Virus record (IMG/VR): IMGVR_UViG_3300020595_003017
Coordinates: 32,001 to 96,000 of that record
Length of the DNA stretch: 64,000 nucleotides
DNA from: a virus
Strand: one strand, 5' to 3'
Part shown: positions 10,438 to 59,195 of the stretch, one piece after another
Layout: the number at the start of each line of letters is the position of its first letter
How positions within the stretch are numbered: the stretch's first letter is position 1
Program-made: the position numbers and the translations under genes
Notes under the pieces: generated by a model
Database searches by the model: none
The model's input: the letters and a program-made list of their open reading frames with translations, nothing else
What the model was told of the DNA's origin: nothing

Positions 10438-11508
10438 ATGGGAAACAAAGCTGGAAACAGCCTTGTAAGTGATTTGCGCAGCGAATTAAACAAGGCAGCT
10501 AAAGAAAATATTGCATATGACTTGCATGGGGATAACCCAACAGACGTCAAGACTTGGATTTCCACCGGCTCAACGCTTTTGGATTATATTATTTCCAACC
10601 GCCGAGACGGGGGGATCCCTGTTGGCAAGCTCACCACGATTGCTGGTGAATCTGCTAGTGGCAAGAGTCTTGTTGTCACTCAGATCCTGGCCAACTGTCA
10701 GAAGATGGGAGGCGTTGCTGTTTATATTGATACGGAGAACGCAGCATCCCCAGATTTTATGGAACAACTAGGACTTGACACAAAGAACAACTTTATGTAT
10801 GTTCAACCTGGCACGATTGAAGAAGTGTTTGAAACTATTGAACGCCTCATCGGACTCATCAGGGAAAAAGCACCTGACCGCTTAGTCTGTATTGTGTGGG
10901 ACAGCGTTGCTGGAACCCCAGTCAAAGCCGAGGTAGAAGGGGACTATGATCCCAACAGTCGTATCGGTCTGACAGCCAAGGCACTAGCCAAAGGTATGCG
11001 GAAAGTAACGGAGACACTCGGCAAAGAGCAGATCGCCATGGTTTTCACCAACCAGTTGAAGACCAACATCGGCGTGATGTTTGGAGACAACCGAGTGGAG
11101 CCAGGTGGCAAGGCTCTACCCTATCATGCTTCCAGTCGTATCTGGCTGACCCAGCACAAGGGAAAAGCCAACGGTCAGATTCTAAACGAGAAGAAGCAGG
11201 TCATTGGTTTCCATACCAGTGCCAAGACGATGAAGTCTCGCTTCGGACCATCACCAAGGAGTTGTCAGTTTGATGTATTATTTGACCTTGCTAACGACCG
11301 TGTTGGCGTTGATGATGAAGGTTCCTGGCTTAGTGCTATCGCTGGCACGCCTGGCTGTATTCGCAGCGGCGCTTGGTATACTATCAATGTTGACGGGGAA
11401 GATAAAAAGTTCCAAAGTAAAGACTTTTCGAAGCTCTTAGAAGATAAGAAGTTTAAGGAAAGAGTTCTTGACATCCTAGAGGATGAGTGTAGAATAGGTA
11501 AGAAGTAG
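10438..11508 (+). CDS. recA: RecA/UvsX-like recombinase
   Basis: ISTGSTLLD, Walker A GESASGKS, VYIDTE, IVWDSVA, FTNQL, PGGKALPYHAS. Confidence 0.95.
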   Translation: MGNKAGNSLVSDLRSELNKAAKENIAYDLHGDNPTDVKTWISTGSTLLDYIISNRRDGGIPVGKLTTIAGESASGKSLVVTQILANCQKMGGVAVYIDTENAASPDFMEQLGLDTKNNFMYVQPGTIEEVFETIERLIGLIREKAPDRLVCIVWDSVAGTPVKAEVEGDYDPNSRIGLTAKALAKGMRKVTETLGKEQIAMVFTNQLKTNIGVMFGDNRVEPGGKALPYHASSRIWLTQHKGKANGQILNEKKQVIGFHTSAKTMKSRFGPSPRSCQFDVLFDLANDRVGVDDEGSWLSAIAGTPGCIRSGAWYTINVDGEDKKFQSKDFSKLLEDKKFKERVLDILEDECRIGKK

Positions 11509-19119: not shown

Positions 19120-19332
19120 ATGAAAGTCGGAGATCTTGTCAAGTTCACCAATCGCAGTCACAGCCTTTATCACAAGTATTCCAAGGGTGTAGGTCTTGTT
19201 ACAGAGATTGATCACATTGCTAAATACAACAGAGGCTCCCGCCAAGAATATCTTGGAGCTAAGGTCACAGTCCAGTTCCCAGAACTAGACAAACCATCAG
19301 TCGTTACAGAATTTTCACTACAAGTAATTTAA
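19120..19332 (+). CDS. small SH3/KOW-like protein
   Basis: MKVGDLVKF...GVGLV...VTVQF...LQVI; GGAGAGAG RBS. Confidence 0.7.
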   Translation: MKVGDLVKFTNRSHSLYHKYSKGVGLVTEIDHIAKYNRGSRQEYLGAKVTVQFPELDKPSVVTEFSLQVI

Positions 19333-22772: not shown

Positions 22773-22964
22773 ATGGAACGATGTAAACTATTTAAAACTA
22801 AGAAGACCTATCGCATACCGGTCGGATTAACGGGGGTGGTTCTAGATACTTTAGAATCATTCCCTCAACTTAAAGTTGTTGCCATTAAGTATGATGTTAG
22901 CGGTTGGAAGTTGTCTGTGATAGCCGAGAAAGATCTTGAATATTTAGAGGACCAAAATGATTGA
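22773..22964 (+). CDS. small hypothetical protein, possibly SH3-like
   Basis: PVGLTGVVLD...EKDLEYL; overlaps the next start. Confidence 0.45.
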   Translation: MERCKLFKTKKTYRIPVGLTGVVLDTLESFPQLKVVAIKYDVSGWKLSVIAEKDLEYLEDQND

Positions 22965-23517
22965 CGGAAAGAAATTAATTAAAAACGAAAACGATTGTTA
23001 CAATTGTGGCTGCAATTTAAAACCAGTCTGTCCAGACTATGAAGGAGACAAGATGGAAGTAAGAGTAGAGCGACTTCACGAAAACGCTAAGCTGCCTGTG
23101 CGGGCACACCCGACAGATGCCGGCATGGATTTATTCTTTTGTCCAGAGCCTAAGCCGGAATTAAAAAATCAAATCGAAACAGTCCTTCCTTTTGGATCGT
23201 CAGTGATTCCCACAGGATTAAAGATTGAAGTTCCAGAAGGGTACATGCTGGAGATTAAAAACAAATCTGGAATCGCCTCAAAGCGTGGGCTGTTAGTTGG
23301 TGCCTGTGTTGTAGATCGTGGGTACACAGGAGAAATCTTTGTGAACCTTCATAACGTGACACACAGAAACCAAACTATCCACGATGGAGATAAGGTTGCC
23401 CAAGCTGTCTTCGTCAAAGTTGACACCGATATTAAATTAGTGGAAACAGAAAAGGGTATCTACGACGAGGACACTAGTCGTGGCGACGGCTCTTTAGGAT
23501 CCACAGGTGACAGATAA
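22957..23517 (+). CDS. dut: trimeric dUTPase
   Basis: DAGMDL, KSGIASKRG, VVDRGYTGE, KVAQAV, RGDGSLGSTG; alternative start at 23053 with a GAAGGAG RBS. Confidence 0.95.
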   Translation: MIDGKKLIKNENDCYNCGCNLKPVCPDYEGDKMEVRVERLHENAKLPVRAHPTDAGMDLFFCPEPKPELKNQIETVLPFGSSVIPTGLKIEVPEGYMLEIKNKSGIASKRGLLVGACVVDRGYTGEIFVNLHNVTHRNQTIHDGDKVAQAVFVKVDTDIKLVETEKGIYDEDTSRGDGSLGSTGDR

Positions 23518-23618
23518 TTTTTGGCAATATATTAAAATATCTTAAAACCTGAATGCCTCCGAAAAAATCTTCCTCCATATTTTCCAGATTTTTAGATTTT
23601 ATTTCACGAAGATAAAAC

Positions 23619-23646
23619 TTGACAGACTCTCTTTCCATGATAATAT
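23619..23646 (+). promoter_or_regulatory. early promoter cassette copy 1
   Basis: AAAAC-TTGACA-16-TAATAT, then AGGAGAGAG RBS and ATG at 23666. Confidence 0.8.
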
Positions 23647-23665
23647 AAGATATAAGGAGAGAGTT

Positions 23666-23893
23666 ATGCATGTCGGTGACAAAGTAAAACTTACAGGCAT
23701 CACCCAGCACGGCAAAAATCGTGTTCGTGAACAGAGTGATGTCTGGGAGGTTATCCGCATGAGTCCCACAGTTTCATTTAAAACATCTGCCTCTGGTCCG
23801 TTTATGTTGTTGCAGGCCACCAAGGGTATCCATATGCGCTGGGTTTCCACCGTCAACGACGACAACTTTTCAGTAGAGGTTATTGATGAGTAA
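23666..23893 (+). CDS. SH3/KOW-like microprotein
   Basis: MHVGDKVKL...FSVEVI. Confidence 0.7.
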   Translation: MHVGDKVKLTGITQHGKNRVREQSDVWEVIRMSPTVSFKTSASGPFMLLQATKGIHMRWVSTVNDDNFSVEVIDE

Positions 23894-24095
23894 GAATGAG
23901 TGGCGTAAAGACTTGAAGGTCGGGGACCTCGTGATGATGAAGAGCGGCGGGATGGCTATCCTTACAGAGGTGTTCTTTCGGTTTCCAGAAACTGACCCAT
24001 CCTATCCCCATATAAAGATGATTTATTGTGATGACAACACACCAGGCAGTTGTAGCGCCTGGCGAGTAGAGGAACTAATCAATGCAAGTCGGTGA
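23886..24095 (+). CDS. SH3/KOW-like microprotein
   Basis: LKVGDLVMM...VEELINASR. Confidence 0.7.
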   Translation: MSKNEWRKDLKVGDLVMMKSGGMAILTEVFFRFPETDPSYPHIKMIYCDDNTPGSCSAWRVEELINASR

Positions 24096-24255
24096 TTTGG
24101 TAAAACGACACGAAGGCTGGCAAGGCTGGAAGCGTCAGCAACTCGGGCTCGTAGTAAATGTAGACCGAGCCGTTATCAGAGTTCAGTGGTCTGGCGACTA
24201 CGGAACATTTTCTCACCCTATCACGTCGCTGGAGGTGCTCAATGAAAGAAGGTGA
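24082..24255 (+). CDS. SH3/KOW-like microprotein (57 aa, not in ORF track)
   Basis: MQVGDLVKRHEGWQGWKRQQLGLVVNVDRAVIRVQWSGDYGTFSHPITSLEVLNERR, translated by hand. Confidence 0.75.
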   Translation: MQVGDLVKRHEGWQGWKRQQLGLVVNVDRAVIRVQWSGDYGTFSHPITSLEVLNERR

Positions 24256-24394
24256 TTTGGTTCGCATGGATGGCCAAACGGGAGTTATTGTTCTCGCTTG
24301 GGGCGTCATGGATGTTGTAGAGGTGCTCTGGGACGATGGGGAAACCAGAGGTCAGAACACCTGCGAGTTGGAGTTGCTCAATGAAGCCCGGTGA
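24242..24394 (+). CDS. SH3/KOW-like microprotein (50 aa, not in ORF track)
   Basis: MKEGDLVRMDGQTGVIVLAWGVMDVVEVLWDDGETRGQNTCELELLNEAR. Confidence 0.75.
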   Translation: MKEGDLVRMDGQTGVIVLAWGVMDVVEVLWDDGETRGQNTCELELLNEAR

Positions 24395-24545
24395 TTTGGT
24401 AAAATATAAAGGCAACGGAAAATGCTATCTGGTATCCGAGGTACGAAAAATTAAAGGTGAGGTAAGGTACTTCCACTTGGACACCTTCCATCCCCAAAGA
24501 GTTTTCTATTCAGATGATGTGAAGGTGATTAATGAAACCAGGTGA
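24381..24545 (+). CDS. SH3/KOW-like microprotein
   Basis: MKPGDLVKYK...VKVINETR; ATG at 24381 after a GGAG RBS. Confidence 0.75.
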   Translation: MKPGDLVKYKGNGKCYLVSEVRKIKGEVRYFHLDTFHPQRVFYSDDVKVINETR

Positions 24546-24720
24546 CTTGGTAAGAATCTCAGATTGGGATTCGGTTGGGGGTTGGAACCCCATCGGTCTT
24601 GTTTTATCTTATCCTGAAGTAAAGAATCACGGGACAACCTCTGTCCTTGTTGACTGGCTTGAATCGCCCGACACAGAATATTACTCAGTCCATCATTTGG
24701 AAATCATCAGTGAAGGCTGA
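24532..24720 (+). CDS. SH3/KOW-like microprotein
   Basis: MKPGDLVRIS...IGLVL...VLVDW...LEIISEG. Confidence 0.75.
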   Translation: MKPGDLVRISDWDSVGGWNPIGLVLSYPEVKNHGTTSVLVDWLESPDTEYYSVHHLEIISEG

Positions 24721-24931
24721 CTTTGAATATCAACTTGGCGACCTCGTATCTTTCAACCCAAGGCGACTGACGGAAGAATATATTAATGATGTTGTCCTGA
24801 CTGGCGTTGTAATCAAGCAGCGTTTAGTTTTCACTGCGGACAATAAGTTCTTGGTGCGAACCCCCGAAAGAGATTACTGGGTTTCAAGACCACGCCTAAC
24901 TTTACTTTCGAGGGCACAAAATAAAACTTGA
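24710..24931 (+). CDS. SH3/KOW-like microprotein
   Basis: GTG start; YQLGDLVSF...TGVVI...LTLLS. Confidence 0.65.
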   Translation: MKADFEYQLGDLVSFNPRRLTEEYINDVVLTGVVIKQRLVFTADNKFLVRTPERDYWVSRPRLTLLSRAQNKT

Positions 24932-24955
24932 CAAACACTCTATCCATAGTAAGAT
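24928..24955 (+). promoter_or_regulatory. early promoter cassette copy 2
   Basis: AAAAC-TTGACA-16-TAAGAT, then AAGGGAGAGAG-TT-ATG (24976). Confidence 0.75.
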
Positions 24956-24975
24956 AAGTTGTAAGGGAGAGAGTT

Positions 24976-25131
24976 ATGTCGGTTCAAGACCATATTGAAA
25001 ATATTCTCAACGCCGAAGGTCAAGAGTGTCTTGACGCTTGGTATGTTGCCATCAACGAGTATCCCCAAAATGCTATGGAAATTCACGATGTGGTTGTTGA
25101 CCACCTCGTTGAAAATACCTTCTTGTATTAA
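24976..25131 (+). CDS. 51-aa hypothetical protein (not in ORF track)
   Basis: MSVQDHIENILNAEGQECLDAWYVAINEYPQNAMEIHDVVVDHLVENTFLY; follows the cassette RBS; the track ORF 24995..25189 is in another frame. Confidence 0.7.
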   Translation: MSVQDHIENILNAEGQECLDAWYVAINEYPQNAMEIHDVVVDHLVENTFLY

Positions 25132-25142
25132 GGGAGAGAGTA

Positions 25143-25337
25143 ATGATTACGGCAGCAGGTTTCGGGATGGGCGCTCTAGTCAACTTTGAGTGGAAGCTGG
25201 ACAAAGAGTTGGGTATGATTGTGCGTCAAAGCAGAGGATACTTTTGGATGGTCAAACGTCTTAGCGACGGCAAGAACCTACTCGTCCCCGAGCGGGATAT
25301 GGAAGTGCTCAGTCCAGCCAGGCCAGCGGCTATTTAA
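25143..25337 (+). CDS. SH3/KOW-like microprotein
   Basis: FGMGALVNF...LGMIV...MEVLS; GGGAGAGAG RBS. Confidence 0.65.
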   Translation: MITAAGFGMGALVNFEWKLDKELGMIVRQSRGYFWMVKRLSDGKNLLVPERDMEVLSPARPAAI

Positions 25338-25340
25338 AAC

Positions 25341-25368
25341 TTGACAAGCACCCTAGACGTGGTAATAT
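25341..25368 (+). promoter_or_regulatory. early promoter cassette copy 3
   Basis: AAAAC-TTGACA-16-TAATAT, AGGAGAGAG RBS, ATG at 25388. Confidence 0.8.
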
Positions 25369-25387
25369 AAGGTACAAGGAGAGAGAT

Positions 25388-25633
25388 ATGTTGTACGGAA
25401 AAGAGTTAGCCCAATCAATCCAGAAACGCTGTAAGATTCAGCCAGGGATGCTGGTCAAGTCCTCGGCGGGAACCGAGGTAAACAAAATTGCCCTCGTTGT
25501 CCGGTTGTCTCCAGCCTGTGAGTTTGACCGAGATTATGAAGGATCAGAGGATCACATCTTTTATATCTGCGAGCCTTGTGATGGAACGCCAGCCTTCTCG
25601 GACTATGTAACGAATATGGAACAGGTCTCATGA
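25388..25633 (+). CDS. SH3/KOW-like microprotein
   Basis: IQPGMLVKS...IALVV...MEQVS. Confidence 0.65.
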   Translation: MLYGKELAQSIQKRCKIQPGMLVKSSAGTEVNKIALVVRLSPACEFDRDYEGSEDHIFYICEPCDGTPAFSDYVTNMEQVS

Positions 25634-25803
25634 AACTCGGAACCCTAGTCCAGTTCGCCGCCTACGGGGCGGTCATGGATACTGGCTATGTTTCAAAGTA
25701 TGATGAGGACCCAAAATTCATGTGGGTAGAGTGTGTGAAGATGGGACCTCAGCGGGTCAGCAAAGACAGCACGATGTTGGAGGTGCTAAGTGAAGCCGGG
25801 TGA
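25630..25803 (+). CDS. SH3/KOW-like microprotein (57 aa, not in ORF track)
   Basis: MKLGTLVQFAAYGAVMDTGYVSKYDEDPKFMWVECVKMGPQRVSKDSTMLEVLSEAG. Confidence 0.7.
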   Translation: MKLGTLVQFAAYGAVMDTGYVSKYDEDPKFMWVECVKMGPQRVSKDSTMLEVLSEAG

Positions 25804-25987
25804 TTTAGTCCGCATCAGAAAAACCTCAATTGACCACATGTCGGCCAATTGGTTTATCTGGCACGCAGAACACAAGACCCCGCTGGTTTTGATTAAAGAA
25901 CTAAACAAAAGTTATTGGAATGTACTGAAGCCTGATGGCGAGACTGTGTTCATTCACAAAAGCCACTTGACGAAGAGAATGTATTGA
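25790..25987 (+). CDS. SH3/KOW-like microprotein
   Basis: GTG start; KPGDLVRIR. Confidence 0.7.
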   Translation: MKPGDLVRIRKTSIDHMSANWFIWHAEHKTPLVLIKELNKSYWNVLKPDGETVFIHKSHLTKRMY

Positions 25988-26178
25988 TGGAACACAAATT
26001 ATATAATATCGGAGACTTGGTAGCGGTTGCTTCCAACCGAGTGCTTGGCATCATCACCAAGTCCAACTACTGGGCTCTTGATGAATATCTCGGTGGTGAG
26101 ATTGAGATGGTGGATGTGATGTTCGGCTCCTCGGTTTCCAAGCAATACCCAGTTCAATATCTGGTGGAGATGAGATGA
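25984..26178 (+). CDS. SH3/KOW-like microprotein
   Basis: YNIGDLVAV...LGII...VDVMF...LVEM. Confidence 0.7.
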   Translation: MMEHKLYNIGDLVAVASNRVLGIITKSNYWALDEYLGGEIEMVDVMFGSSVSKQYPVQYLVEMR

Positions 26179-26396
26179 CCAGAGTTATCACATACCGACC
26201 CGAAGTCGGCGACATCGTGAAGTATCATATGTTTGGCTGCCGTGATAAGGTCGGCGTAGTTTTGGGAATAGAAAAAAAAGAAATGAACTACACATCCTGT
26301 AAGGTAGTTGAGGATGGTTGCTTAGTGTCTTTTAATAATAAGCCCCCCGTGTGGGAACCATTATATTCTTTGGAAAAGGTTGATGGTAAATACTGA
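26175..26396 (+). CDS. SH3/KOW-like microprotein
   Basis: PEVGDIVKY...VGVVL...LEKV. Confidence 0.7.
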   Translation: MTRVITYRPEVGDIVKYHMFGCRDKVGVVLGIEKKEMNYTSCKVVEDGCLVSFNNKPPVWEPLYSLEKVDGKY

Positions 26397-26589
26397 TTTA
26401 AAAATAGGCACACTGCTCCGAGTGAGAGAGCACTGCCGGAAAAATATCACCATCCGCAACAACGGCGAGTATGGTATTTTGGCACTAAGTGCTAACGGAA
26501 AATATATTACACACGATGTATTATTTCCCAACGGAACCAGATGTATTTATATGCCCTTGAATTGGGAGGTTGTTAGTTATGCGGGATAA
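26380..26589 (+). CDS. SH3/KOW-like microprotein
   Basis: LKIGTLLRV...YGIL...DVLF...WEVVS. Confidence 0.65.
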   Translation: MMVNTDLKIGTLLRVREHCRKNITIRNNGEYGILALSANGKYITHDVLFPNGTRCIYMPLNWEVVSYAG

Positions 26590-26836
26590 GATGTGGGAAG
26601 TTCAACAGCCCGGAACTCTTTTGCGAGCACGCAGTAGCCATCAATATGGTAAACTGGCTTTAGTCCTTCAAGAGGCTTATGCTGGACCTACGCCAAGCAA
26701 CGGCTATCCTCCCCGCCAGTATGTGAAGATGCAGTGGCTTGCCACTGGCGAGCGGTTTGAAGAAATGTTAACAAATGCTCATAATTGTTTTGACATTGTG
26801 GGTTCCTGTGATACACTAGGACCTGAGGAGAACTGA
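26579..26836 (+). CDS. SH3/KOW-like microprotein
   Basis: QQPGTLLRA...LALVL...VKMQW...FDIV. Confidence 0.6.
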   Translation: MRDKMWEVQQPGTLLRARSSHQYGKLALVLQEAYAGPTPSNGYPPRQYVKMQWLATGERFEEMLTNAHNCFDIVGSCDTLGPEEN

Positions 26837-27039
26837 TGGCTATCACACCCAAGTTCAAGCCAGGGCAACTGGTAGAGTATGCTGACCCTGACTGGTCACT
26901 TGTTGGTCTGGTCAAGTCTACACAATTCGCCCGTCGCCGAGGTGACCCAGTTTTTGTGCTGGTCCAGTGGTGTGGAAAGTATCGGAACAATGAAGAATAT
27001 ATTCCCCAATCAGAACTTAAACTAGTGGAGGGTTCATGA
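26836..27039 (+). CDS. SH3/KOW-like microprotein
   Basis: FKPGQLVEY...VGLV...VLVQW...LKLV. Confidence 0.7.
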   Translation: MAITPKFKPGQLVEYADPDWSLVGLVKSTQFARRRGDPVFVLVQWCGKYRNNEEYIPQSELKLVEGS

Positions 27040-27563
27040 ATATTTTTGCTATCGAAGGCGATGAAGAGACAGGACAGATTGACTGGGAGAAGTCAGCACA
27101 GTCTCAAGACAACTTGCGGGTCGTCAAGATGATCCTAGAGTCTTGTCAGATCATGTCAACAGTTATCAACGAGCAGGGGCTCAAAGCTCCCTACCGTTCG
27201 TTCAATCCCAAGCACCCATCGTGCCTATGGGCTGCTGAGTCGGCAAGTAACTATATGAATCTTGCTTTGCACTGCCAGGCTATGATTGATGAGTACGAGC
27301 ATCGCTTCAACAAGACTCACAAGTGCCAAGCGGTTCTCAAGACTCTTATTGAGTTGTTTGACCCTGGCTTGTTTCCATCCATGGAGTGTACCCCGCTCCG
27401 CCTGGCCATGCCTGACGAGTTTCGATCAGACAATCCTGTAGTATCTTACCGCAGGTTCTATGCTTCTAAACCACGTTTGCGCTACCCAGTTGACAAAATC
27501 CCACAATGGGTATATGATTATCGTACTGAACCATTTGAAGTAGTTGAAGGAGAAAAAAGATGA
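27036..27563 (+). CDS. pyrimidine-dimer DNA glycosylase family protein
   Basis: MNIF...VVKMILESCQIMS...HPSCLW...NY...EYEHRFNKTH. Confidence 0.75.
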   Translation: MNIFAIEGDEETGQIDWEKSAQSQDNLRVVKMILESCQIMSTVINEQGLKAPYRSFNPKHPSCLWAAESASNYMNLALHCQAMIDEYEHRFNKTHKCQAVLKTLIELFDPGLFPSMECTPLRLAMPDEFRSDNPVVSYRRFYASKPRLRYPVDKIPQWVYDYRTEPFEVVEGEKR

Positions 27564-27727
27564 CAACTGAATGGAACCCCAGCACCACTGTGATGAACAC
27601 CAAGACCAATGAGACGGGTCGTTTGTTAGGCCAGTTTTTTAGAAAGGGTGAGCGATGGTGGACTGTCTATTGGGAAAGCGGCGAGACCACAGCCGAGTGT
27701 GAGAAAGAAATGCTTGGTGATGAGTAA
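27560..27727 (+). CDS. 55-aa hypothetical protein, possibly SH3-like (not in ORF track)
   Basis: MTTEWNPSTTVMNTKTNETGRLLGQFFRKGERWWTVYWESGETTAECEKEMLGDE; overlaps both neighbours. Confidence 0.55.
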   Translation: MTTEWNPSTTVMNTKTNETGRLLGQFFRKGERWWTVYWESGETTAECEKEMLGDE

Positions 27728-27998
27728 GAAGCATTTAAAGAAACTTAAGCGAGCCAAAAAGAAAAAGAAAGATAAAAAGGTTTCCGAAGAGCAGCAGCGA
27801 CATCTAGCTAAACAGATGAACATGTTTGATAGGTTGCCTGATTCTTGTTCGGCTTGCAAAAAAGAGTTCCCTAAGACCCGCCAGGCACACACAACCTGGA
27901 AGGTCGTGGTGAGGACAGAAAAACAGCAAGTGAGACTTTTTTGCCCAGAGTGTCAGAAATTAGCCAATAAGTTGGCGGAGGAACAAAATGAAGTTTAA
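27720..27998 (+). CDS. basic Zn-finger protein
   Basis: CSAC...CPEC with a Lys-rich N-terminus. Confidence 0.6.
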   Translation: MSKKHLKKLKRAKKKKKDKKVSEEQQRHLAKQMNMFDRLPDSCSACKKEFPKTRQAHTTWKVVVRTEKQQVRLFCPECQKLANKLAEEQNEV

Positions 27999-39351: not shown

Positions 39352-39759
39352 ATGCGAGCAACAATTAGTTTTGAGACCGATGTAGGTGAGGTGGAGGGCA
39401 CGATGGCAGTTTTAGCCTGTTCGGAAGAGCACAACCTTCGTGCTGCTGCTGACCTCTTGTCTGACTTCACTGTTTTAGATGGAAGTGTGTTAGATGCAAT
39501 TACGGAAGTTTTGCGCTTGGTGGATATGTCTGCCGGACAACTTAGGCAGTACCAGCAAATGATGTTGAGTTTTGAAAAGGCAAAGTTTGAGACAATGCTG
39601 CCCCAGCCAGTTGAGCAAGCTATCCCAGTCGTTGACAACATGGAAAAGCTCAACGAGGTCAAGAAAAATATGCAGGGACTAGAGTCCTTCCTCGACAAGA
39701 TAGCGGCGGTGAGTGAAGCCGATGATCAGGAGGCTAACCATGAAACCCAGAAAGGGTGA
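39352..39759 (+). CDS. hypothetical protein
   Basis: TATAAT and AGGAGG upstream. Confidence 0.55.
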   Translation: MRATISFETDVGEVEGTMAVLACSEEHNLRAAADLLSDFTVLDGSVLDAITEVLRLVDMSAGQLRQYQQMMLSFEKAKFETMLPQPVEQAIPVVDNMEKLNEVKKNMQGLESFLDKIAAVSEADDQEANHETQKG

Positions 39760-39958: not shown

Positions 39959-40262
39959 GGTTTCAGAAGTTTATGAAAGACAAACAAAAGTAATCAAAGA
40001 GCGGCCTGATGGTTCAGAGTACGCAAGCTTTGAAAACATCTTTGATACAAGGGATGCTCTTATCAACGAGAGTTTTGTTGTATCAGTCCACCCTCACGAG
40101 TTTACTACCTCGGCTGGTCTCTCAAAAATGGAGGCAGCATTCCCTGATGGGACAAAGTTCAGTACATTTATTGTTGATGGTAACTCTTTTCGCAAATCTG
40201 AGATGATTGTAATCGGTTCGTTTGAGCGGTTTTGTGACATGTTACAGGATAGAGAGACATGA
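39951..40262 (+). CDS. hypothetical protein
   Basis: GTG start with GGAGG RBS; coupled to neighbours. Confidence 0.55.
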   Translation: MLKVSEVYERQTKVIKERPDGSEYASFENIFDTRDALINESFVVSVHPHEFTTSAGLSKMEAAFPDGTKFSTFIVDGNSFRKSEMIVIGSFERFCDMLQDRET

Positions 40263-41002
40263 GCTTCCCAACCTGGGGTGACTTGTTTGATAATTATTGT
40301 TCTCATACAACGATTAAAACATCTTTGGGACTTAAGCAAAATCTCTTTTATGAGGAGTTTGCAAGAAGAAGATATAATCCATCGCCCATTAGTGACACCT
40401 CTTGTTGTCGGCTGGTGTTCTTAAAAGACGTATTGCACAACCCCACTAACAAAACGCTTTGTCGCCAGGGTCGATTTATCTGGTGCAAAAATTTGCACTA
40501 TGAAGGTCGTGATGATAACGGTTACAGGCAAATATCTTTTACAATTGACAAGGGTAAGAAGAGATTTAAAGTATCAGAAAAGAACATGTTATGTCTTCCG
40601 TCAAAAGTTTTTATTCACAACAACAGGTATTTTAGATCAAACTTGAAGACCTTTGCAGCTTTTTCTACTGTATTTAGTCACAGGCAGACCATGACCATGA
40701 TGCGTAAGTCTTGGTCAGGCGCAGACGGAGAGTTAGATACTATCATTGACGAAGACAGTCCTTTTAAGCCGGGCACGCTGGTATCACCTCGTGTTGGGTA
40801 TTTTCATCCAGATGTTGATTGGAATTCTGTCGGCGACACGAAACAAAACATGTCCGGAAGAGACCACCCATGTGGGATCATTCTCGGAAAGTCTCTCGTA
40901 GATAACGATTATGTAGGAAGAGAGTTCTACCGTGTGCGTTTTGGAAATACTACATATGAAAAGGTTCACCCTGTGCAAATGGAGATATTAAATGAAGTTT
41001 AG
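40259..41002 (+). CDS. hypothetical protein with a C-terminal SH3-like domain
   Basis: FKPGTLVSP...CGIIL...YRVRF...MEIL. Confidence 0.55.
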   Translation: MSFPTWGDLFDNYCSHTTIKTSLGLKQNLFYEEFARRRYNPSPISDTSCCRLVFLKDVLHNPTNKTLCRQGRFIWCKNLHYEGRDDNGYRQISFTIDKGKKRFKVSEKNMLCLPSKVFIHNNRYFRSNLKTFAAFSTVFSHRQTMTMMRKSWSGADGELDTIIDEDSPFKPGTLVSPRVGYFHPDVDWNSVGDTKQNMSGRDHPCGIILGKSLVDNDYVGREFYRVRFGNTTYEKVHPVQMEILNEV

Positions 41003-43948: not shown

Positions 43949-44154
43949 AAGAAGAAGATAAAGAATATAATATTGATGAGTGGAAAACTAAATTTTCCGA
44001 AGGTGAGATTAGCGAATCTGCTGCTGAACTTGCCGCTAAATTTATGTTTGCAATGTCTTACTATCATGAGCGAATGAAACTGCATATCATGTTACACCCT
44101 CTCTTCTTTCTAGCTGGTTTCATGATCGCATTTTTTGCGTTCGGAGAAATGTGA
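43945..44154 (+). CDS. small protein with a C-terminal TM segment
   Basis: PLFFLAGFMIAFFAF. Confidence 0.5.
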   Translation: MKEEDKEYNIDEWKTKFSEGEISESAAELAAKFMFAMSYYHERMKLHIMLHPLFFLAGFMIAFFAFGEM

Positions 44155-58797: not shown

Positions 58798-58981
58798 CTT
58801 CATCGTTGAGTACCAGCGGGTCGATCGCACGGGCGGAATTAACTTTGGTGTAGTGATGGGCGCAGAGAAAGGCTTTCAGGATATGATCGTACTTGATGTA
58901 GTATTCCCCACGGAAAGATTATATACTTTTGCCAGCCACTGCCAGCCATATAAGGATTGGTTAAATGAAAACGGGTTTTAA
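58781..58981 (+). CDS. SH3/KOW-like microprotein
   Basis: MFQKGDFIVE...FGVVM...DVVF. Confidence 0.65.
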   Translation: MFQKGDFIVEYQRVDRTGGINFGVVMGAEKGFQDMIVLDVVFPTERLYTFASHCQPYKDWLNENGF

Positions 58982-59195
58982 AGCCGGCGACCTTGTTAAG
59001 GTCAAGGACGATTCATGGTGGTTACAAAGGTCTCAAACCTTCCGAGCCATGATAGCGCCTGGCAGCCTTGTATTGGTTACGGATAATATTGTAGGCAGTA
59101 AACGGTTCTTTTATGGCCTTGTCTGCGGTAGTGACGGCGAAGCACACTTGTGGAGTTGTGATCAATTTGATTTGGTTCAAAGCGCCGGACAGTAA
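58965..59195 (+). CDS. SH3/KOW-like microprotein
   Basis: FKAGDLVKV...FDLV. Confidence 0.7.
   Translation: MKTGFKAGDLVKVKDDSWWLQRSQTFRAMIAPGSLVLVTDNIVGSKRFFYGLVCGSDGEAHLWSCDQFDLVQSAGQ

Follow-up and report, generated by a model that had tools for sequence, protein, structure and literature searches.

Tandem SH3-fold paralogs with dual-coding overlaps vary in content and order among relatives of an uncultured marine phage

The window analyzed here is a stretch of 64,000 nucleotides (nt), bases 32001-96000 of the 190.5-kb virus record IMGVR_UViG_3300020595_003017, which CheckV rates as complete (completeness 100%). The source is a roughly 190-kb uncultured marine phage whose genome encodes DNA polymerase III alpha, a DnaB-type helicase, class II ribonucleotide reductase, GroEL, GMP reductase, dUTPase and RecA. 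Between the dUTPase gene and a denV-like gene of 175 amino acids (aa), the window holds an array of 17 small plus-strand open reading frames (ORFs); the interval 23666-27039 comprises 16 small paralogous genes, u01-u07 and u09-u17, and one unrelated ORF, x08 (Table 1). Three sigma-70-type promoter cassettes split the array into three operons. P1 stands at the head of the first and is homologous to the cassettes at 24923 and 25336 (84-89% identity), and the promoters at 23619, 24928 and 25341 each agree with a strong sigma-70-like promoter at 10/12 consensus positions, which is a consensus match only. The orthologs of x08 in six relatives always lie directly behind a promoter cassette, and their position in the array varies.

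Table 1. Features of the array and related genes, in window coordinates; hhalign values are probabilities against the family profile A1
Feature	Coordinates	Strand	Evidence or remark
RecA-family recombinase	10438..11508	+	PF00154, E 1.7e-44
Stand-alone family member	19120..19332	+	HMM E 2.8e-7
dUTPase	22957..23517	+	Conserved left array boundary in relatives
Promoter cassette P1	23612..23665	+	TTGACA at 23619, 16-nt spacer, TAATAT, then AAGGAGAGAG ribosome-binding site
u01, 75 aa, probable family member	23666..23893	+	hhalign 70%
u02, 69 aa, family member	23886..24095	+	hhalign 96.8%; tail overlaps u03 by 14 nt
Junction core u02/u03	24070..24101	+	-12 to +19 around start codon
u03, 57 aa, family member	24082..24255	+	Folded unit: AlphaFold2 pLDDT 88, five-stranded barrel
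Junction core u03/u04	24230..24261	+	
u04, 50 aa, family member, most mobile cassette	24242..24394	+	Five contexts in five genomes
Junction core u04/u05	24369..24400	+	
u05, 54 aa, family member	24381..24545	+	hhalign 99.3%; HMM E 4e-16
Junction core u05/u06	24520..24551	+	
u06, 62 aa, family member	24532..24720	+	hhalign 98.5%
u07, ~73 aa, family member	24710..24931	+	hhalign 96.4%; start uncertain
Promoter cassette P2	24923..24975	+	TTGACA at 24928, 16-nt spacer, TAAGAT
x08, 51 aa, acidic, non-member	24976..25131	+	hhalign 0.1%; travels with promoter cassettes
u09, 64 aa, family member	25143..25337	+	hhalign 94.4%; ends in decayed junction
Promoter cassette P3	25336..25387	+	TTGACA at 25341, 16-nt spacer, TAATAT
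u10, 81 aa, family member with N-terminal extension	25388..25633	+	hhalign 90.3%
u11, 57 aa, family member	25630..25803	+	hhalign 98.7%
Junction core u11/u12	25778..25809	+	
u12, 65 aa, family member	25790..25987	+	hhalign 96.5%; GTG start within 14-nt junction
u13, 63 aa, family member	25987..26178	+	hhalign 92.6%, just 19 aligned columns
u14, 73 aa, family member	26175..26396	+	hhalign 96.0%; few relatives have u14
u15, 68 aa, family member	26383..26589	+	hhalign 96.4%
u16, 85 aa, divergent member	26579..26836	+	hhalign 73%; AlphaFold2 pLDDT 84, small barrel
u17, 67 aa, family member	26836..27039	+	hhalign 97.3%; last unit ahead of 175-aa gene
Conserved 175-aa gene, right array boundary, not a unit	27036..27563	+	phrog_624; Pyr_excise/denV-like
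55-aa ORF, membership unsupported	27560..27727	+	hhalign 8%
Stand-alone family member	58965..59195	+	HMM E 7.8e-5

An initial interpretation made from the letters of the window (the sequence-only reading) had proposed that 16 ORFs extending to 27727 form one family. To assess membership, we built a profile, A1, from 48 units of the window and related contigs, and compared the ortholog alignment of each unit with it by hhalign. Fourteen of the 16 units exceed 90%, the ORFs at 23666 and 26579 reach 70% and 73%, and neighboring enzymes stay below 1%. The proposed family holds for these units; the ORFs at 24976 and 27560 find no support as members (0.1% and 8%). The breadth of the profile matters here: a strict hidden Markov model (HMM) iterated from six seed units recovered just nine members in the genome, and the wider A1 profile together with profile-profile comparison was needed. 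Searched against the genome, the A1 HMM returns 20 plus-strand matches ahead of the first shuffled decoy (E 0.047) and none on the minus strand. Beyond the array and the stand-alone members of Table 1, further members with E below 0.03 lie at 44154, 45376, 45939, 57740 and 58431, and at the C-terminus of 40253-41002. Ten stand-alone members had been proposed earlier, and eight of them beat the first decoy. One of these eight, 58220, does so solely because its stop-to-stop ORF (E 2.9e-4) contains a 16-residue C-terminal-type match upstream of the 58220 start; the remaining two, 39740 and 58781, match in the N-terminal motif alone. The 247-aa protein at 40253-41002 ends in ...MEILNEV, and its C-terminal ~75 residues give a match to the profile with E 0.006; the SH3-like barrel described below thus also occurs as a domain within a larger protein.

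Scanning every unit against Pfam and PHROG yielded no usable match. No cut-off of the named SH3-like Pfam families (KOW PF00467, DUF2158, DUF4314, DUF1653, YorP) was reached when all window units and the 48 members were run through hmmscan, the best sub-threshold matches being DUF4314 with E 0.0056 in one of the 48 members and DUF2158 with E 0.21 over 13 residues. The best sequence-profile E-value against the PDB was 0.008. Structure prediction is more informative. AlphaFold2 was run on two units, u03 (with A1) and u16, the other units being placed by profile homology. The u03 model, with a predicted local distance difference test score (pLDDT) of 88, has strands at residues 6-9, 21-27, 31-36, 42-46 and 50-52, and its best PDB matches are the KOW domains of Spt5 and NusG, NdhS, PWWP, Tudor and SPbeta YorP (template-modeling score 0.7-0.78, Z 7-8). 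The u16 model (pLDDT 84) best matches the CarD N-terminal domain, Tudor and KOW (Z 5.3-7.2). Both models show the five antiparallel strands over ~50-70 residues that characterize the SH3-fold small β-barrel. Z values of 5-8 are ordinary for small barrels, so that these predictions settle the fold class and are silent on function. The shared SH3/KOW-like fold that had been proposed from residue patterns is thus supported by two predicted structures and by profile homology.

The family extends far beyond this phage and is abundant in marine metagenomes. A search of 1.84 billion proteins with A1 (E <= 1e-3) returns 3,695 cluster representatives at 50% identity, almost all of them 50-70 aa long and many ending in LEV(I/V)(S/N)E(S/A)R. 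The clusters that were sampled are unnamed and metagenomic, including some from the Sargasso Sea data set, and an Atlas feature search returned solely unnamed viral clusters. In a set of 80 related loci plus the phage genome, 222 of 2,580 called genes (~9%) are family members. Close cultured relatives of the phage were not found: blastn and tblastn of the array and u03 gave no match among cultured phages, and the best cultured-phage RecA match, at 40% identity, is from Microcystis phage Mel-JY01, which has zero SH3-fold family members. Near-identical DNA is present in marine metagenome runs from ~9 independent studies, and more than 300 IMG/VR contigs encode relatives of the 175-aa gene that bounds the array. 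RNA runs contain ~0.7 of the words of the stretch, which is not a demonstration of transcription. Taken together, the array is a tandem expansion of paralogs that have since diverged; their family is very large and unannotated, and its proteins of 50-85 aa have an SH3 (KOW/Tudor-like) fold. The units are conserved proteins under purifying selection rather than hypervariable ones: the ratio of nonsynonymous to synonymous substitution (dN/dS) is 0.07-0.26 for the orthologs of every unit (u01, with orthologs in nine genomes, has 0.09) vs 0.06-0.08 for the flanking enzymes. Since orthologous units are so conserved, the array is not a hypervariable library. Isoelectric points (pI) range from 4.1 to 9.8 and loops differ as well, but such variation in charge and loops is equally expected of any old family of small domains.

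Many of these units are chained by a stereotyped overlap. The sequence-only reading had described five exact 14-nt overlaps with the ribosome-binding site in the tail of the upstream gene, and our inspection bears this out at 24082, 24242, 24381, 24532 and 25790. The upstream gene ends in L-E-V-(I/L)-(N/S)-E-x-(R/G)-stop; GGAGGT lies 5 nt ahead of the next start, within the upstream L-E-V codons; the next ATG or GTG lies inside AAT/AGT-GAA; and the upstream TGA lies inside the GGT-GAY of the next gene. Across 92 non-redundant junctions, with the start codon at 0, GGAGGT occupies -11 to -6 and TGA +11 to +13, and the conserved core spans -12 to +19, ~32 nt. In the u03 model this DNA corresponds to the last strand of one barrel (residues 50-52) followed by the first strand of the next (residues 6-9), as had been anticipated. 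The 14-nt junction has the sequence features of a translationally coupled overlapping gene pair, and its primary role would be coupling by termination and re-initiation.

The junctions are also alike as DNA. The previously noted identity of 28/33 nt between 24368-24400 and 25777-25809 is correct; the other junction pairs of the window share 19-27/33, vs a mean of 8.4 and a maximum of 21 in 20,000 draws of random array 33-mers. Flanked on each side by an ORF of 35 aa or more, the pattern [AGT]TG-N6-GGTGA[CT] appears six times on the plus strand of the 190.5-kb genome, five of them in the array, and not at all on the minus strand; 1.23 Mb of related loci hold 113 such overlaps on the plus strand and one on the minus strand. 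Within the family, 106 of the 222 members have the 14-nt overlap. Variants of the arrangement exist: stop-within-Gly-Asp overlaps are indeed present, as reported, at 39740 (20 nt) and 58781 (17 nt), and with a GTG start u07 would overlap u06 by 11 nt, resembling a junction shortened by one codon (GTG AAG GCT GA). A far larger array lies at L039:6981-15391, in a 38.7-kb IMG/VR contig, with 20 14-nt junctions and 29 family matches; its preferred wording is GTG AAA GTC GGT GAT (M-K-V-G-D over S-E-S-R-stop).

One junction of the window is degenerate. At the end of u09 (~25301-25325), GGAAG replaces GGAGG, GTC replaces GTG and GGCCA replaces GGTGA, and the promoter TTGACA-16-TAATAT at 25341 follows. 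In seven relatives, u09 is instead followed by an intact 14-nt junction and then by u04, a u05-like unit or a u17-like unit. The proposal that a unit was deleted at this point agrees with these relatives: the decayed junction marks a unit that was lost.

A coding or translational reason can be given for nearly every conserved base of the junction: the L-E-V-(I/L)-(N/S)-E frame, the M-K-x-G-D-L-V frame, GGAGGT, the start codon and the T of the stop codon. The Gly codon is GGT in 106/106 overlapping members, whereas stand-alone members use GGA (61%) or GGC. Even one and the same unit follows this rule, u04 having GGC at L009:3885, where there is no overlapping upstream gene, vs GGT at window 24242. 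The T of GGT serves solely to make the upstream TGA. Synonymous sites after the stop codon differ between overlapping members and all non-overlapping members (GAT 86% vs 58%, Leu TTR 75% vs 46%), but when distance from the start is controlled by taking stand-alone members with Gly at residue 4, GAT at Asp5 is 86% vs 83% (p 0.75) and a marginal excess of Leu TTR is left (75% vs 57%, p 0.03). Excess synonymous conservation as a sign of selection at the DNA level was rejected, as it vanished under this control; the GAT/TTR bias is mostly the usual A/T-rich effect at 5' ends. Concerted evolution is likewise absent, the likeness of non-orthologous junctions being 0.645 within and 0.642 between genomes (p 0.40). 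No obvious inverted repeat was seen in the junction core by eye, no attC model being run. The sequence-only reading held that junction DNA is kept for recombination. This part is not supported: the conservation is almost fully accounted for by the two frames together with the stop codon, the Shine-Dalgarno sequence and codon bias at the 5' end, essentially the outcome which that reading had itself named as counting against it.

To compare gene order, we used 14 IMG/VR contigs that carry the array between the dUTPase and denV-like genes. They differ in unit content and order through gains, losses and rearrangements. The window order is u03-u04-u05-u06. L002 and L006 have u02-u05-u06 ... u09-u04-u03-u11, L009 has u03-u06-u07 ... 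u04-u05, L010 has u11-u04-u05-u12, and L011 and L012 have u02-u06 ... u04-u09. In L018, which has seven consecutive 14-nt junctions, six units without a close ortholog in the window lie between u02 and a u06-like unit. The relatives show permutation, beyond loss alone, and 33 distinct neighbor pairs occur among 61 14-nt junctions. In u02, for example, a 14-nt junction always comes next, with four different successors across 11 genomes. When an orthologous unit is compared between two genomes, the gene that follows it is a different one in 67% of pairs at 14-nt junctions and in 78% where a promoter-bearing spacer of at least 30 nt intervenes, vs 33% at other overlaps (-1, -4, -8, -11). A fixed gene order, which would have spoken against shuffling, is not what we find: order varies, the switch from one homology to another falls within the junction core, and new combinations of units again have the 14-nt overlap.

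The borders of these rearrangements can be mapped closely. Where two junctions share the upstream unit and differ in the downstream one, identity is 0.7-1.0 up to position 0, the start codon, and falls to background (0.2-0.3) after +23; where they share the downstream unit and differ in the upstream one, identity stays at background up to -13. Homology is thus handed over between ~0 and +7, inside the overlap. When u04 is aligned from five genomes, its ~90% identity gives way to unrelated sequence left of ~-12 and right of ~+20 in five contexts. Against L007, identity rises from ~69% to 93-97% at 25769, the left edge of the u11/u12 junction, and in L015 u03 is 92% identical while both its neighbors are unrelated. 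Synonymous divergence is mosaic by unit: in one genome pair, u04 (0.12) sits beside u03 (0.57) and u05 (0.53), and across all units the median synonymous divergence (pS) is lowest in u04, at 0.41, where the backbone gene of these pairs has 0.65. Moreover, blastn segments end at 23614-23668, 24923-24979 and 25336-25390, i.e. at the promoter cassettes. The sequence-only reading had expected crossovers to swap variable cores; a junction crossover instead exchanges whole genes, not cores within a protein.

A read-level check was made on Logan contigs. Joints in metagenome runs connect junction to junction or junction to promoter (24104->24241, 24410->25780, 24554->25778, 24712->24923 and 25313->24274). 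Their sides measure 22-83 nt at 88% likeness, so that related strains may be their source; the joints agree with the contig comparison but do not prove it independently. A contig of virome run X8 joins 25322 back to 24923, going back 400 nt, with a shorter side of 38 nt. This could be a tandem copy or circle of P2-x08-u09 between homologous promoter cassettes, or a strain with another gene order.

Two genes beyond the right boundary are of a different kind. The ORF at 27560-27727 is an accessory gene outside the family. In two runs from different studies (X7 and X8), a joint 27535->27737 replaces it with 28 other letters, and it is missing from several IMG/VR relatives as well as from metagenome strains. 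Downstream, GMP reductase is directly preceded by 27699-27998, which encodes a lysine-rich, zinc-ribbon-like protein (~99 aa, two CxxC pairs) that is conserved in relatives (cluster z19).

We consider it probable that these data describe a hyperplastic early-gene region in which the translational-coupling junction doubles as a short-homology crossover point. In the chained units, the last strand of the upstream protein carries GGAGGT and the next start codon, with the upstream TGA set in the GGT-GAY of the next gene, and this ~32-nt core is the sole DNA common to otherwise unrelated units. Because it is the only homology that diverged units share, crossovers would occur there, as rare events of short-homology recombination that join junctions of a single genome or of relatives in co-infection. 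Elsewhere a crossover would not leave both genes intact, and this suffices to account for the junction-bounded pattern of cassettes. Each crossover would delete, duplicate, insert or reorder whole genes while rebuilding an intact coupled junction, and the promoter cassettes would act likewise at operon borders. Shuffling would then most likely be a by-product of conserved coding and translation signals, with no dedicated system, and every unit would be a conserved protein with its own function, plausibly in early host take-over. Several observations weigh against this account. No recombination event was caught as it happened, and selection would by itself remove recombinants that break genes, so that breakpoints at gene borders are partly expected under any mechanism. 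Junction pairs are ~64% identical over 35 nt, and their exact shared runs (median ~7 nt, maximum 33) fall below the usual need of RecA-type recombination, such that classical RecA exchange would be inefficient; it is because these runs are so short that the mechanism would have to be a rare, short-homology one. The contrast in neighbor turnover (Fisher p 1e-14) draws on genome pairs that are phylogenetically non-independent, 14-nt junctions cluster in the left half of the array so that junction type is confounded with position, and gene starts in the relatives were assigned by a simple heuristic. Lastly, both early expression and translational coupling are predictions from the DNA sequence. 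Paralogy, fold class, the anatomy of the junction, mosaicism bounded by it and purifying selection are thus what the data show, the recombination mechanism and the function of the units being inferred as coupling and early expression are.

A bolder interpretation, that of the sequence-only reading, treats the junction as a linker selected for its evolvability, and the array as a self-shuffling, integron-like and integrase-free library of small binders serving anti-defense or host take-over. Its premises are in part correct. Cassettes do move, with junctions as their bounds; family members are very numerous and diverse, the 38.7-kb contig alone having as many as 29 copies; loops and surface charge vary on a conserved barrel scaffold; early-type promoters are present; and synonymous divergence is lowest in u04, the most mobile unit, as recent spread would predict. 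The phage does encode RecA, as had been stated, and is integrase-free as far as tyrosine integrases are concerned, a PF00589 search of the complete genome giving no match while 14/14 control genomes match. However, the junctions carry no excess DNA conservation beyond coding, ribosome-binding site, stop and 5'-codon bias, they are not homogenized within genomes, the exact homology between them is short, purifying selection acts on the orthologs, and 116 of the 222 family members, about half, lack the 14-nt junction. We therefore regard such a library as unlikely. It is similarly doubtful that the dual-coding 14-nt junction is a selected portable recombination linker by which a widespread marine phage clade swaps SH3-fold cassettes in co-infection to match host targets or defenses. 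A binder or anti-defense role for individual units is neither supported nor excluded by these sequences. The observation behind the earlier reading is thus confirmed and its interpretation upheld in part: the fold, the junction strands and the variable order stand, and maintenance of the junction at the DNA level and the swapping of cores are not supported.

Conversely, junction recombination might be dispensed with altogether, if a large ancestral array had been pruned differentially while ordinary homologous recombination inside orthologous units mixed lineages, the precision of the borders reflecting selection for intact genes. Much of what distinguishes the genomes is indeed presence or absence of units, junction homology is weak, and the mosaic of synonymous divergence also extends across non-14-nt junctions such as u15/u16. 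Yet order is permuted (u03-u04 in the window and L003, u04-u03 after u09 in L002 and L006, u11-u04-u05 in L010), 33 distinct neighbor pairs occur among 61 14-nt junctions, and every new combination regenerates the exact 14-nt overlap with no leftover sequence on either side; loss alone cannot yield reordered adjacencies without crossover at or near the junction. We judge pruning to be distinctly unlikely. Very improbable is a programmed frameshift, whereby ribosomes would read through the junctions to make multi-barrel polyproteins. Each junction provides a start codon of its own, ATG or GTG, at a suitable distance from GGAGGT, the core of the 92 junctions contains no conserved slippery heptamer, the upstream stop is strictly conserved, and stand-alone members work as single domains. 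What speaks for it comes from metagenomes, which hold in-frame fusions and a repeat protein.

Those proteins (P0003, P0004, P0017, P0075 and P0077) comprise fusions of two units in frame (100-129 aa) and one 370-aa protein of five repeats. In the fused proteins the junction has sometimes collapsed into a linker.

Should they hold, three consequences reach beyond this phage. The array would define a very large unannotated family, of at least 3,695 clusters and ~9% of the clade's called genes, which Pfam and PHROG do not model and whose SH3-like fold is assigned with confidence. For the long-standing 'conserved linker' model of phage mosaicism, it would provide a concrete example resolved at the sequence level, in which the linker itself is dual-coding and bears translation signals; because it codes in two frames and carries these signals, every crossover would yield two intact coupled genes, which would explain the modularity of a block of overlapping genes. 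Behind early-type promoters in abundant ocean phages there would be a natural set of diverged small barrels, a place to seek host take-over and counter-defense factors; judged by the barrel fold, their partners may include RNA polymerase, the ribosome and nucleic acids. Were shuffling a mere by-product, the array would be a tidy instance of a known principle rather than a new system.

Several known systems offer points of comparison. Small SH3-fold barrels (KOW of NusG and Spt5, Tudor including the RNA-polymerase-binding domains of CarD, Mfd and UvrD, NdhS, PWWP and YorP) share with the array units the five strands and the N-terminal G-D-hydrophobic-V strand, but the units have no sequence-level membership in any of these named families. 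The comparison with integrons holds only loosely. Both feature small promoter-less genes under an upstream promoter, with cassette content and order that vary between relatives; here, however, all cassettes are paralogous and share one fold, recombination would depend on homology rather than on specific sites, and no integrase was found in the complete genome, the PF00589 search for an IntI-type tyrosine recombinase being negative.

Closer parallels exist within phages. In T4-type phages, promoter-early stem-loop (PeSL) cassettes (Arbiol et al. 2010, PMC2839356; Comeau et al. 2014, PMC4122927) are likewise short motifs, conserved and recurring across a hyperplastic region whose small early ORFs are non-essential, the ends of indels and replacements between related phages fall within the motifs, and recombination regenerates a working expression signal. 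The window cassettes at 23612, 24923 and 25336 behave in this way, with indel and replacement end points inside the motif and the 78% neighbor turnover given above. Unlike a PeSL, these cassettes (~55 nt) have no stem-loop terminator beside the promoter, no terminator-like plus-strand hairpin having been found directly upstream of the three. The main linker of the array differs further in that it is neither intergenic nor a promoter-terminator element, being dual-coding with ribosome-binding site, start and stop; it measures ~32 nt vs ~100 bp, and the genes it shuffles are paralogs of one family rather than unrelated ORFans. The modular theory proposed that homologous recombination at short conserved 'linker' sequences at module borders makes mosaic junctions, and in other phages such border sequences could not be found at most mosaic borders (PMC3029335), so that the model is seldom easy to document. 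At the borders of the array units a conserved sequence is identifiable, and it differs from the linker of that theory in being conserved through two-frame protein coding and present in up to 20 copies in one contig.

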